NCBI RefSeq assembly: GCF_053078305.1
Contig: NZ_CP166879.1
DNA length: 64,000 nt
Strand: one strand, 5' to 3'
The notes beneath the pieces were generated by a model that saw only the letters and a list, made by a program, of their open reading frames with translations, ran no database searches and was not told where the DNA came from. Of this stretch, positions 2,530 through 12,725 are shown piece after piece. Within the stretch, counting starts at the first letter, position 1. Each line of letters begins with the position of its first letter. The position numbers and the translations under genes are program-made.

Positions 2530-3897
2530 TTAATCGCAGGCAACGATCTTCATTGCCAGGCCGCCGCGAGAGGTTTCGCGGTACTTGGCGTTCATATCTT
2601 TACCTGTTTCGTACATGGTTTCGATAACTTTATCGAGGCAGACGCGCGGCTCGCTGGTACGGCGCAGCGCCATACGTGCGGCGTTCACCGCTTTTACTGC
2701 CGCAATGGCGTTACGCTCGATGCATGGCACCTGTACCTGTCCGGCGACCGGGTCACACGTCAGACCGAGGTTGTGCTCCATGGCGATTTCCGCCGCGATG
2801 CACACCTGCGCCGGGCTTGCACCTAACAGTTCTGCCAGACCAGCCGCCGCCATTGAGCACGCCACACCAACTTCACCCTGGCAACCCACTTCGGCACCAG
2901 AAATCGACGCGTTCATCTTATAAAGAGAACCAATGGCGCTGGCTACCAGCAGGTAACGAGCCAGTGAGTTAGCGTTCACTTCGCGGATAAACTTATCGTA
3001 GTACGCCAGCACTGCCGGGATAATCCCGCACGCACCGTTAGTCGGCGCAGTCACCACGCGACCGCCAGCAGCGTTCTCTTCGTTCACTGCCAGTGCAAAC
3101 ATGTTGATCCAGTCAACAACCGCCATCGGGTCAGTGGTGGTTTTATCCTGGCTGACCAGCATCCGGCGTAGTGCCGCAGCACGGCGTGGAACGCGCAGTT
3201 TGCCAGGCAACACGCCTTCGGTGGAAATACCGCGCTCAATACCGCCGCGCATGACTTCCCAGACGTTCGCCAGGTGCTGTTCCAGCTCTTCTTTGCTGTG
3301 CAGCGCCAGCTCGTTTTTCATCATCAGGCCAGAGAGTGACAGCCCGGTTTCCTGACAATGTTTTTGCAGATCGGCTGCTGAACTGTACGGATAAGGAACT
3401 TCAACCGGTGCGCTATCCTGCTGGCCAAAATGCTCTTCATCAACGATAAAGCCACCGCCAATAGAGTAGTAAGTCTGACTGTAAACGACTTTATCACCCG
3501 CCAGCGCGGTAATGCGCATACCGTTTTCATGCAGAGAAAGGTTGTCGGCATGGAAGTTCATGCACTGATCAACCGGGAACTCCACTTCATGCTGACCGTT
3601 TGCCAGCATCAGGCGACCATGAGTATTCACATCCTGAATAAAACCAGGGATGGAATCGATATCCACGGTATCCGGCAGGTTACCCGCCAGGCCCATAATA
3701 ATGGCGATATCAGTGTGGTGGCCTTTACCAGTCAGAGAGAGCGAGCCGTACACGTCAACCACCACGCGGGTCACGTCTTTAAGCTGGTTACGGGCAATCA
3801 GATCGTCGGTAAATTGTTTACCCGCTTTCATTGGTCCAACGGTATGAGAACTGGAAGGGCCAATGCCGATTTTGAAAATATCGAATACGCTAATCAT
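2530..3897 (-). CDS. sdaB: L-serine dehydratase 2
   Basis: 455 aa ORF, Fe-S L-serine dehydratase family, downstream of sdaC. Confidence 0.9.
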   Translation of the reverse strand: MISVFDIFKIGIGPSSSHTVGPMKAGKQFTDDLIARNQLKDVTRVVVDVYGSLSLTGKGHHTDIAIIMGLAGNLPDTVDIDSIPGFIQDVNTHGRLMLANGQHEVEFPVDQCMNFHADNLSLHENGMRITALAGDKVVYSQTYYSIGGGFIVDEEHFGQQDSAPVEVPYPYSSAADLQKHCQETGLSLSGLMMKNELALHSKEELEQHLANVWEVMRGGIERGISTEGVLPGKLRVPRRAAALRRMLVSQDKTTTDPMAVVDWINMFALAVNEENAAGGRVVTAPTNGACGIIPAVLAYYDKFIREVNANSLARYLLVASAIGSLYKMNASISGAEVGCQGEVGVACSMAAAGLAELLGASPAQVCIAAEIAMEHNLGLTCDPVAGQVQVPCIERNAIAAVKAVNAARMALRRTSEPRVCLDKVIETMYETGKDMNAKYRETSRGGLAMKIVACD

Positions 3898-8948: not shown

Positions 8949-9317
8949 GTCGACAGGGAGTCAGACAACGAAGTGAACATCAGGATGATGACACTTCTGA
9001 AGGACACACCAGGATGGTGTTTCAGGGAAAGGCTTCTGGATGAAGCGAAGAGGATGACGCAGGACGCGTTAAAGGACACCTCCAGGATGGAGAATGAGAA
9101 CCGGTCAGGATGATCCGGTGGGTCAGGAAGGCCAGGGACACTTCAGGATGAAGTATCACATCGGGGTGGTGTGAGCAGGAAGCAATAGTTCAGGATGAAC
9201 GATTGGCCGCAAGGCCAGAGGAAAAGTTGTCAAGGATGAGCAGGGAGCAACAAAAGTAGCTGGAATGCTGCGAAACGAACCGGGAGCACTGTGAATACAG
9301 TGCTCCCTTTTTTTATT
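8949..9317 (+). ncRNA. csrB: CsrB small RNA (CsrA-sequestering)
   Basis: About 370 nt non-coding stretch with many CAGGATG / AGGA(T)G GGA-motifs spaced every 15-30 nt; ends in hairpin GGGAGCACTG...CAGTGCTCCC plus T7 run at 9282-9314. Confidence 0.92.
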
Positions 9318-10488: not shown

Positions 10489-10938
10489 ATGGCGGAAATT
10501 GGTATTTTTGTCGGCACCATGTACGGAAATTCGCTGTTAGTGGCGGAAGAAGCAGAAGCAATTCTGACCGCACAGGGCCACAAAGCAACGGTATTTGAAG
10601 ATCCTGAATTAAGCGACTGGCTGCCCTATCAGGATAAGTATGTTCTGGTGGTTACGTCCACGACCGGGCAGGGCGACCTTCCTGATAGCATTGTGCCGCT
10701 CTTTCAGGGAATCAAAGATAGTCTGGGCTTCCAGCCGAATCTGCGTTATGGCGTGATTGCGCTCGGCGACAGCAGTTATGTAAATTTCTGCAATGGCGGC
10801 AAACAGTTCGATGCCTTGTTGCAGGAACAGAGCGCTCAGCGGGTTGGCGAAATGCTGTTGATTGACGCCAGTGAGAACCCGGAACCGGAAACGGAATCAA
10901 ATCCGTGGGTCGAACAGTGGGGCACGCTGTTGTCCTGA
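10489..10938 (+). CDS. yqcA: Flavodoxin-like protein
   Basis: 149 aa ORF with flavodoxin signature ([10 protein letters not shown]). Confidence 0.8.
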
Positions 10939-11372
10939 TATGTTCAGCGAGCGGTAAATGTCGTTTTAGCGGTGCTGAATCGAATCTTTTCAGGCAAATG
11001 CCAGTAAAAACTGCTTCATAGCGCGGATTTTTACTGGCGTTTGCCTGGAGTCAAGCGATCCATTTCATACTCTTCTTTATTTCTTCGTTTTAACCCTTCC
11101 TTTCTTGTTCTTGTTTTCATTTCCGTGAAGTGGATTCCACCGTCCAGGGCTAATGCCAAAATCGGGCCTCATTGAACGCATTAATGTTGTGTTGTTGCAC
11201 GGTGAGCCGCTATGGCGCGCTTTTTATACTGCTATTGCCAGATATAAACACGCGCCGTATTCGGCGAACGACCTATAAAAACGGCAAAAAACACCCTACG
11301 TCACCTCTGATTTCCTGGCGATGTCGCAGTCCAGAGTGAGCGTGGCTAACGCGAATTTTCAGGAGTGCAACA

Positions 11373-12725
11373 ATGAGTTCTTTAAGTCAGGCTGCGAGCA
11401 GTGTGGAAAAACGCACGAATGCTCGTTACTGGATAGTGGTGATGTTGTTTATCGTCACATCCTTCAACTACGGCGACCGCGCTACGCTTTCTATTGCCGG
11501 TTCGGAAATGGCCAAAGATATCGGCCTTGATCCCGTGGGAATGGGCTATGTGTTCTCTGCCTTCTCATGGGCTTATGTTATCGGGCAGATCCCTGGTGGT
11601 TGGTTGCTGGATCGTTTTGGTTCAAAACGCGTCTACTTCTGGTCGATCTTTATCTGGTCGATGTTTACCTTGCTGCAAGGCTTCGTCGATATCTTTAGTG
11701 GATTCGGCATTATCGTTGCCCTGTTTACTCTGCGCTTCCTGGTCGGGCTTGCTGAAGCGCCATCTTTCCCCGGCAACAGTCGCATTGTTGCGGCCTGGTT
11801 TCCGGCGCAGGAAAGGGGAACGGCGGTGTCGATTTTTAACTCCGCTCAATACTTCGCAACGGTGATCTTCGCGCCGATTATGGGCTGGCTGACGCATGAA
11901 GTGGGCTGGTCACACGTCTTCTTCTTTATGGGCGGTCTGGGGATTGTCATCAGCTTTATCTGGTTGAAAGTCATCCACGAGCCAAATCAACATCCGGGGG
12001 TAAATCAGAAAGAGCTGGAGTACATCGCCGCGGGTGGCGCGCTGATCAATATGGATCAGCAAAACACCAAAGTTAAAGTGCCGTTCAGCGTGAAGTGGGG
12101 GCAGATCAAACAACTGCTCGGGTCACGGATGATGATCGGCGTTTATATCGGTCAGTACTGTATTAACGCCCTGACTTACTTTTTCATTACCTGGTTTCCG
12201 GTTTATCTGGTGCAGGCGCGTGGGATGTCGATTCTGAAAGCGGGCTTTGTGGCTTCCGTTCCGGCGGTTTGTGGTTTTATCGGTGGTGTGCTGGGTGGGA
12301 TTATTTCCGACTGGCTGATGCGCCGCACGGGATCGCTGAACATTGCGCGTAAAACACCGATCGTAATGGGCATGTTGCTGTCGATGGTGATGGTGTTCTG
12401 CAACTACGTCAACGTTGAGTGGATGATCATCGGCTTTATGGCGCTGGCCTTCTTCGGTAAGGGCATCGGGGCGCTGGGTTGGGCAGTAATGGCAGATACC
12501 GCGCCAAAAGAGATCAGCGGTCTTTCCGGTGGCCTGTTCAACATGTTCGGTAACATTTCTGGCATCGTCACGCCAATCGCAATTGGTTATATCGTTGGCA
12601 CGACTGGCTCGTTTAATGGGGCGCTGATTTATGTTGGTGTTCATGCCTTAATCGCGGTACTGAGCTACCTGGTGCTGGTGGGCGATATCAAGCGTATCGA
12701 GCTGAAACCTGTCGCGGGGCAATAA
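11373..12725 (+). CDS. gudP: Glucarate/galactarate MFS transporter
   Basis: 450 aa MFS protein, first gene of gudPXD. Confidence 0.85.

Follow-up and report, generated by a model that had tools for sequence, protein, structure and literature searches.

A conserved 85-bp module with operator-like boxes contains the long hairpin between yqcA and gudP in Escherichia coli

The gap between yqcA and gudP holds a long hairpin, and the question that it raises is whether it acts in RNA, as a terminator or processing site of the transcript that ends with yqcA, or in DNA, as a protein-binding palindrome of the gud regulatory region; both roles had been put forward in a first-pass annotation made from the sequence. 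The stretch of DNA analysed here (the window, 64,000 nt) is E. coli K-12-like: 501 bp of it match DH10B with 100% identity, and it represents the MG1655 minus strand, where the NC_000913.3 coordinate equals 2933473 minus the window position. Gene coordinates agree with the earlier placement of the hairpin between yqcA and the gudP promoter region: yqcA (flavodoxin; 10489-10938, + strand) is the last gene of the yqcC-truC-yqcA run, gudP occupies 11373-12725, the gap between them is 434 bp, and the hairpin lies 53 nt past the yqcA stop codon, in the yqcA 3′UTR. The annotations and literature searched contained no annotation or description of the hairpin. In the same literature, no paper was found that treats yqcA together with gudP or with an sRNA, and papers naming yqcA deal with the protein.

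The hairpin (10991-11047, + strand) consists of a left arm CAGGCAAATGCCAGTAAAAA (10991-11010), a middle ctgcttcatagcgcgga and a right arm TTTTTACTGGCGTTTGCCTG (11028-11047). The 20-nt arms pair through 19 Watson-Crick pairs and one T-G pair (T10999-G11039), which bears out the description of a long imperfect hairpin with a stem of about 20 bp; the loop between the arms (11011-11027), however, counts 17 nt and not the 18 nt first given. Folded as + strand RNA, the hairpin is predicted to grow to 27 pairs, 23 of them contiguous, with three outer pairs (10988-10990 with 11048-11050) and a 4-bp inner stem within the loop (CTGC/GCGG; 11011-14 with 11023-26, A11027 bulged). The predicted energy is -40.8 kcal/mol, compared with -16.9 ± 2.9 kcal/mol for shuffled sequences (z = -8.1; 0 of 200 shuffles as good), while the fold of the - strand RNA is weaker (-31.7 kcal/mol, z = -6.0) because the lone mismatch is U-G on the + strand and C-A on the - strand. 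Among the seven inverted repeats in the 64-kb window (arms of at least 16 nt, at most 60 nt apart), this is the longest. A T5 run (11028-11032) lies directly 3′ of the small inner stem, inside the right arm; it adjoins the inner stem yet belongs to the long one. The full stem itself has no trailing T-run, as had been noticed, and is followed directly on its 3′ side by GGAGTCAAGC.

Like REP/BIME elements, the hairpin is an intergenic imperfect palindrome that follows a gene, but it lacks the REP consensus, has an A/T-rich middle and holds its position across genera. It is also present as a single copy (median one place per genome) in 5,425 of 5,426 complete E. coli genomes, which rules out a repeat element with many dispersed copies and upholds the view that it is not REP-like. 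Along a stretch of 106 nt, 5,380 of the 5,425 complete genomes show an identity of at least 99%, although this test has little power because E. coli intergenic DNA is generally this similar.

Comparison of 80 yqcA loci across the Enterobacteriaceae, one per species, showed gudP to be the next gene after yqcA in most of them and separated the gaps into two size classes, of about 420-530 bp with, and about 280-390 bp without, an orthologue of window positions 10974-11058. This module is present in Escherichia, the C. koseri/amalonaticus/sedlakii group, Salmonella arizonae and diarizonae, Silvania, Kosakonia, Phytobacter, Superficieibacter and Raoultella, and absent from Enterobacter, the C. freundii group, Lelliottia, Buttiauxella and Pluralibacter. 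Its length is 84-86 nt in all genera but Salmonella, in which the arizonae and diarizonae versions are exactly 10 nt shorter. Its blocks run in the order ACTGAATCGAGTTAGC, GGCAnnTGCC, GTAAAA, a fast-evolving centre, TTTTTAC, GGCrTTTTCAC and GTCAAGCGA-N5-TTCACAC. In an alignment of 28 sequences from 8 genera, the G, C and C of the left box GGCAnnTGCC and parts of the right box GGCrTTTkCAC are invariant, and the spacing from box to box is fixed. The distance from GTCAAGCGA-N5-TTCACAC to the gud promoter block TTCCGTGAA is 74-75 bp, or 64 bp in two genera; the spacer after the module measures 63-64 nt in other genera and 53 nt in Leclercia. Since these indels are of 10 nt, helical phase is kept. 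Conservation across enterobacteria, which the first-pass annotation had named as a way to check the hairpin, was found in the form of this module, kept in eight genera.

What is conserved across these genera is primary sequence and spacing, and not the long stem. RNAalifold found no consensus long helix in the 28 sequences, which rules out a long helix conserved in all genera; the long stem is restricted to certain lineages. The 20-bp stem occurs only in Escherichia, shorter versions occur in Citrobacter, Superficieibacter and Salmonella, and Kosakonia, Phytobacter, Silvania and Raoultella retain the boxes but form no long stem. Across all genera 68% of alignment cells pair, compared with 82% in the pairing subset of Escherichia, Citrobacter and Superficieibacter. 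One stem position covaries (CG 9, AU 7, UA 3), and wobble pairs fill 51 cells when read on the + strand against 16 on the - strand, counts that reflect few independent events. Matched variation of the arms and a U-G bias are unexpected for independent protein sites and fit RNA pairing better, a point against the composite reading developed below.

CdaR is the activator that responds to sugar diacids, and the arms of the hairpin resemble paired boxes upstream of gudP, garP and cdaR. The gudP core promoter and its two-box upstream region (11147-11230, + strand) comprise a -85 box GGGCTAATGCCAAAATC (11147-11163), TTGCAC (11195-11200) and the -10 element TATACT (11225-11230), and the core promoter blocks TTCCGTGAA, GGGCTTATGCCAnAAAC, TTGCACGGTGAG and TATACT are invariant across 23 genera; the gudP start would lie near 11237 and the hairpin centre near -218. 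Sites some 200-240 bp upstream of a start are unusually far out for an activator, which also speaks against the composite. In E. coli, about 130 nt of the gudP and garP promoters can be aligned with no gap, and both promoters carry TGCAC-N24-TATACT. The cdaR promoter, with GGCATTTGCACAATG-N24-TATGCT (GCATTTGCAC-N24-TATGCT), has the same design, which lies behind the CRP site reported in PMC12871828 and is shared by seven genera (E. coli, Salmonella, Klebsiella, Jejubacter, Pantoea, Dickeya and Pectobacterium). The garP boxes form an inverted pair, GTGCATATGCT / AGCATTTGCAC; the core-to-core spacing is 42 bp in garP, 42 bp in gudP P1 and 43 bp between the hairpin arms.

A position weight matrix (PWM) trained only on the gud -85 box GGGCTTATGCC of other genera was used to scan 76 kb on both strands. 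The gud box itself ranked first (score 18.8), a box in the garP-garD gap third (12.6), the left arm of the hairpin fourth (12.0, well short of the true -85 box) and the right arm 17th (9.1, - strand). The left arm, in which the box core GGCAAATGCC (10993-11002) is followed by an A-rich tail, fits the -85-type box GnGCwwwTGCCnnAAA that would mark a member of the CdaR regulon. The right box core GGCGTTTGCC (11036-11045) shares 7 of 10 positions with the -43 box TTGCACGGTG in E. coli and up to 8 of 10 elsewhere; several other genera have GGCATTTTCAC as their right box, a single base away from the cdaR/garP box GGCATTTGCAC. The motif GCATTTGC was found 12 times in 88 kb, mostly within genes, and 3 of the 12 occurrences fall in the roughly 1% of scanned DNA that is CdaR-regulon intergenic sequence; the box motif is short, and the motif comparison is post hoc.

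Compared with the two-box regions of the CdaR (SdaR) regulon (gudP, garP and cdaR), the hairpin shares the core GnGCwwwTGC followed by an A-rich tail, an inverted arrangement as in garP at almost the same spacing, and a location in the gud upstream region with boxes conserved across genera. It differs in that the complementarity of its arms spans 20 bp, compared with about 11 bp there, that it lies about 200-240 bp upstream of the presumed gudP start, and that its matches are partial, as the PWM scores and the right box show; the CdaR sites of the compared promoters are themselves presumptive. It also has no -10 element at N24: TATRCT was not found there after the right box, TCTTCT standing at N24 and CATACT at N19, which rules out that the module is a complete second copy of the gud promoter. 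The arms are putatively a distal inverted pair of CdaR boxes that resembles the -85/-43 boxes, and, of the roles first suggested for the hairpin, a protein-binding palindrome is the best supported: the core sequences are kept where no stem forms and the boxes match those of gudP, garP and cdaR at like spacing, although only in part.

Further conserved boxes flank the stem on both sides. A Cra/FruR-operator-like box GCTGAATCGAATCTTT (10974-10989) abuts the stem base and reads ACTGAATCGAGTTAGC in most other genera. Against the Cra operator consensus gcTGAAtCGaTTCAgc (PMC5888115), this candidate agrees at 12 of 16 positions in E. coli, where its left half is perfect, and four genera (Silvania, Superficieibacter, Kosakonia and Phytobacter) reach 13 of 16. 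Taken by itself, the E. coli score lacks significance, since the 64-kb window contains five hits of equal quality (four mismatches), and what is of note about the candidate is its conservation across genera. Neither gudP nor yqcA is named in the main text of PMC5888115. On the other side of the hairpin, a conserved box GTCAAGCGA-N5-TTCATACTC (11050-11071) reads TTCACACTC in other genera, and its TCAAG, G and A are invariant in the 28 sequences. Its opposite strand reads TGTGA-N6-TCGCT, which is CRP-like and is degraded in K-12 to TATGA...TCGCT; a half-site pair of this kind is given for a CRP site in PMC12871828, and the box is a candidate CRP-like site or a site for another factor. A possible sigma-70 promoter on the - strand, TTGACT-N16-AAAAAT, was rejected, its -35 being invariant but its -10 not kept in other genera, and motifs for LexA, ArgR, TyrR, PurR, FadR, IHF and sigma-54 were dropped by eye for poor fit.

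At the RNA level, the centre of the module in about 20 of the 28 orthologues holds, on the + strand, an A-run, then a GC hairpin of 5-7 bp and a T4-T7 run, a shape that in most genera looks like a weak intrinsic terminator, often of the bidirectional type. The GC stems of Citrobacter, Raoultella, Salmonella and Superficieibacter (5-7 bp, -5 to -9 kcal/mol) are followed by T5-T7; in some Phytobacter and Kosakonia the T-run is present on the - strand only, or on neither. The E. coli loop is orthologous to this GC hairpin, and the residual stem beside its T-run has 4 bp and -3.9 kcal/mol (-4 to -9 kcal/mol over all orthologues), such that a GC-rich stem of adequate stability beside a U-tract was not found in E. 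coli. The hairpin is like intrinsic and bidirectional terminators in lying just past a stop codon with A5...T5 around a small stem, and unlike them in the shortness of that stem in E. coli, in the long stem that no T-run follows and in the Rho-dependence of termination in the gap.

Transcript ends agree with this picture. Curated Term-seq data from three conditions (Adams et al. 2021) hold no 3′ end at 29224xx and no entry for yqcA or gudP, and thus the hairpin is not an efficient intrinsic terminator, although weak 3′ ends could be missed because expression is low. End mapping had been proposed as a second check, and in this one data set it gave no end at the hairpin; the SMRT-Cappable-seq and TERMITe supplements likewise have no entry for yqcA or gudP. 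Termination in the yqcA-gudP gap is Rho-dependent. DirectRNA-seq with and without bicyclomycin (BCM; Adams et al. 2021, Supplementary file 2) defines a Rho-dependent termination region (Rho score 3.98, p = 9e-8) with its peak at 11355 on the + strand (2922118, minus strand, in NC_000913.3), 18 nt before the gudP ATG and about 300 nt downstream of the hairpin, a position that is imprecise because the counting windows are 800 nt. Reads upstream and downstream numbered 114 and 23 without BCM and 112 and 90 with it; with Rho blocked, about 80% of transcription in the yqcA sense reaches the far end of the gap. The 63-nt tract directly 3′ of the stem (11059-11121, + strand) is 84% pyrimidine and poor in G (C 25%, T 59%, G 5%), and the same spacer is G-poor in other genera (5-21% G); it is a plausible candidate for the Rho loading site (rut) on yqcA-sense RNA. 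Of the terminator first proposed, what stands is the arrangement of A-run, GC hairpin and T-run in most genera; in E. coli the stem is too short, no Term-seq end coincides with it and Rho stops transcription well downstream.

The other RNA role first put forward, a processing site, is plausible for the hairpin, as is one in protecting a 3′ end. Stable stem-loops are reported to mark the processed 3′ ends of Rho-terminated transcripts (Dar and Sorek 2018, PMC6061677). Compared with those stems, the hairpin is similar in that its long stem lacks a U-tract and has a C-rich, G-poor tract and then a Rho region downstream, but different in that no 3′ end is seen at the stem, the peak of the Rho region is some 300 nt away and small hairpins lie between.

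The reading that we tentatively favour, while holding it somewhat more likely to be wrong than right, is a composite of a distal operator-like box pair, a vestigial terminator and a poorly terminating 3′UTR stem; the hairpin is best read as a side effect of how the DNA sites are laid out, together with what is left of a terminator. In DNA, the arms would be a promoter-distal inverted pair of boxes like the -85/-43 boxes of gudP, garP and cdaR, which are presumably bound by CdaR. This distal pair would be centred about 240 and 197 bp upstream of the gudP start, in helical phase with the proximal pair and flanked by the Cra-like and CRP-like boxes; from the likeness of the boxes, CdaR or another protein may bind the arms, and the distal and proximal pairs may cooperate. 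In the spacer, the inner tails of the boxes, one A-rich and one T-rich, would flank a short GC hairpin and make up a vestigial weak terminator of yqcC-truC-yqcA. In Escherichia, the small GC stem would have decayed and the complementarity of the arms would have reached 20 bp by substitutions in the right box (TTTTCAy to TTTGCCTG, five pairs gained), either by selection for an RNA stem or by quasi-palindrome template switching. In RNA, because the region is transcribed as the 3′UTR of yqcC-truC-yqcA, the same sequence would form a very stable stem that is inefficient at stopping RNA polymerase. Rho would terminate downstream, past the G-poor pyrimidine tract, and the stem would probably be at most a barrier to 3′ exonucleases after Rho-dependent termination, where it might set the 3′ ends of yqcA. 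Reading the arms as operator boxes would explain why their cores are kept as sequence, why the length is fixed, why both indels are of 10 bp and why the A-rich and T-rich tails point inward.

An explanation in RNA alone, in which the hairpin is a leaky intrinsic terminator or pause hairpin of the yqcC-truC-yqcA 3′UTR, backed by Rho and with no protein on the DNA arms, is possible, but we consider it unlikely; the same holds for its corollary that, after Rho termination and 3′-to-5′ trimming, the stem is a protective mRNA 3′ end and insulates the gud control region. Its position 53 nt past the yqcA stop, where the + strand offers no further terminator-like site, is as expected of such an element, as are a fold that favours the + strand (-40.8 compared with -31.7 kcal/mol), the wobble bias (51 G-U cells on the + strand and 16 on the - strand), covariation of A2 positions 31-63 and the apical stem, and a T-run of at least four directly after a small + strand hairpin in 20 of the 28 orthologues. 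The downstream Rho region and G-poor tract also fit the Rho-terminated RNAs trimmed back to a stem that are reported in PMC6061677. However, this explanation leaves unaccounted for the invariant box cores where no long stem forms, the fixed length of 85-86 nt, the 10-nt indels and the likeness to the gudP, garP and cdaR boxes in motif and spacing. The lack of a 3′ end at the hairpin in curated Term-seq from three conditions, the weakness of the hairpins beside the T-run in all genera (-4 to -9 kcal/mol) and an extra hairpin directly after yqcA in other genera also argue against it.

It is improbable, in our estimate, that the long stem has no selected function and is a neutral quasi-palindrome produced by template-switch mutation in Escherichia atop older conserved blocks. 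The confinement of the 20-bp stem to Escherichia, with shorter stems or none elsewhere, would follow from such an origin, and the Escherichia lineage L003 has three mismatches and a fold of only -26.9 kcal/mol; the module has been lost repeatedly, with REP-like palindromes in its place, and the site has neither a 3′ end in curated Term-seq nor an annotated feature. The strand bias of the wobble pairs and the deep conservation of the boxes nevertheless argue for some constraint, as does, in a test of low power, the near-identity of the 106-nt stretch within E. coli (at least 99% in 5,380 of the 5,425 genomes). More doubtful by far is that the hairpin forms the 3′ part of a small RNA, derived from the yqcA 3′UTR or from its own Cra-box-controlled promoter, with a 5′ seed ACUGAAUCGAGUUAGC and an end at the T-run, or that its duplex of 24-27 bp is an RNase III site. 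A conserved block does lie directly upstream of the hairpin and T-run in most genera, -10-like hexamers (TATTAT, CATTAT, TTTTAT) were seen by eye 6-8 nt upstream of that block in some of them, and, at 23 contiguous predicted pairs, the duplex would be long enough for RNase III (at least about 20 bp). But Kosakonia and Phytobacter keep the seed without a + strand T-run, Term-seq has no 3′ end there, the literature searched holds no link between yqcA and an sRNA, and Rfam 15 (E < 1) returned no family in E. coli, Salmonella, Citrobacter, Phytobacter or Raoultella, only CsrB lying nearby, upstream. A promoter of its own for a + strand small RNA was rejected in E. coli, where there is no convincing -35/-10 and the candidate -10, TTTTAG, is not usable.

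A bolder form of the DNA reading would place gudPXD under a DNA loop that joins inputs from the inducer (through CdaR), glycolytic flux (through Cra) and cAMP, with the module as a promoter-less distal copy of the CdaR two-box unit, in helical phase with the proximal unit and set between a Cra operator and a CRP-type site, and the transcribed stem shielding the region from read-through; we give this little credence. If the arms are true CdaR sites, they would give a first view, at sequence level, of the wiring of the glucarate/galactarate regulon, with a two-box design shared by gudP, garP and cdaR, a distal pair at gudP and possible Cra/CRP input, and would be relevant to how enterobacteria use oxidised sugars in the inflamed gut. 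If the hairpin is a 3′UTR stem only, it would be one more weak terminator backed by Rho. Every reading puts the hairpin in a known class, and it is a local detail of a well-studied genome that brings no new principle.

The shorter gaps without the module often hold REP-like palindromes (for example in Enterobacter and the C. freundii group), and many genera that lack the module (Enterobacter, the C. freundii group, Buttiauxella) still keep the gud promoter, a further point against the composite reading.

The conserved intergenic module that holds the hairpin opens, at window positions 10974–10989, with a putative Cra (FruR) operator, GCTGAATCGAATCTTT, which adjoins the hairpin and is proposed from its resemblance to the Cra consensus. 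Cross-genus comparison revealed that this box reads ACTGAATCGAGTTAGC in Citrobacter, Salmonella, Silvania, Kosakonia, Phytobacter and Superficieibacter, a form that matches 13 of the 16 positions of the operator consensus; no Cra target at 10974–10989 is recorded in the searchable literature. Downstream of the hairpin, a second conserved block (11050–11071) consists of an invariant GTCAAGCGA followed by TTCAyACTC, which is CRP-like when read on the opposite strand, and a perfect TTGAC, a −35-like core, lies within the same block on the minus strand. A single clinical strain, E. coli THO-008, carries a 20-bp tandem duplication (GTAAATGCCGTTTTAGCGGT twice; positions 555–574 of its yqcA locus, L002, corresponding to about window position 10954) immediately 5′ of the Cra-like box.

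The gap from the 11050–11071 block to the gud promoter block is a constant 74–75 bp. Between the hairpin and that promoter lies a G-poor, T-rich tract (11059–11121; 63 nt, 59% T and only 5% G), of which the length (63–64 nt), not the sequence, is held across genera. Length variation in the conserved region is limited to changes of 10 bp: Salmonella arizonae and diarizonae have lost 10 nt within the module (about 3040–3115 in loci L024 and L025), and the spacer is shorter by 10–11 nt in Leclercia and a related isolate (loci L033 and L043, intergenic positions 38–102). The pattern suggests a constraint on helical phase.

The K-12 promoters of gudP (11100–11245), garP (locus L083, 4975–5125, minus strand) and cdaR (locus L084, 6350–6450) share a common layout: a GTG box or CRP site upstream, next a GnGCwwATGC box, and then TTGCAC, separated from TATRCT by exactly 24 nt. 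In cdaR this layout is kept from E. coli through Pectobacterium. A published Rho-dependent termination region of the ‘orphan’ class maps to 11355 (NC_000913.3 2922118, minus strand), 18 nt 5′ of the gudP start codon, and could target either yqcA read-through or the gudP leader, the inferred length of which is about 136 nt. This leader would also hold a hairpin, CGCCGTATTCGGCG (11253–11266), with an all-GC stem of 5 bp, which a terminator scan flagged on the minus strand with the tail CGTGTTTATA.

Most non-Escherichia genera have an additional GC-rich hairpin, CCCTCCC...GGGAGGG, immediately 3′ of yqcA (loci L008, L009, L020, L023, L024, L051, L054, L055, L058 and others), within the first ~35 nt past the stop codon; it is seldom accompanied by a clear T-run and is absent from Escherichia. 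Enterobacter and the C. freundii group lack the module, and their yqcA–gudP gap is taken up by REP-like palindromes (GCCGGGTAAGGCG...CCCGGC; loci L011, L026–L032 and L035–L044). The CsrB small RNA (8958–9317; Rfam RF00018, 384 bits) lies 5′ of yqcC-truC-yqcA, on the same strand as those genes.
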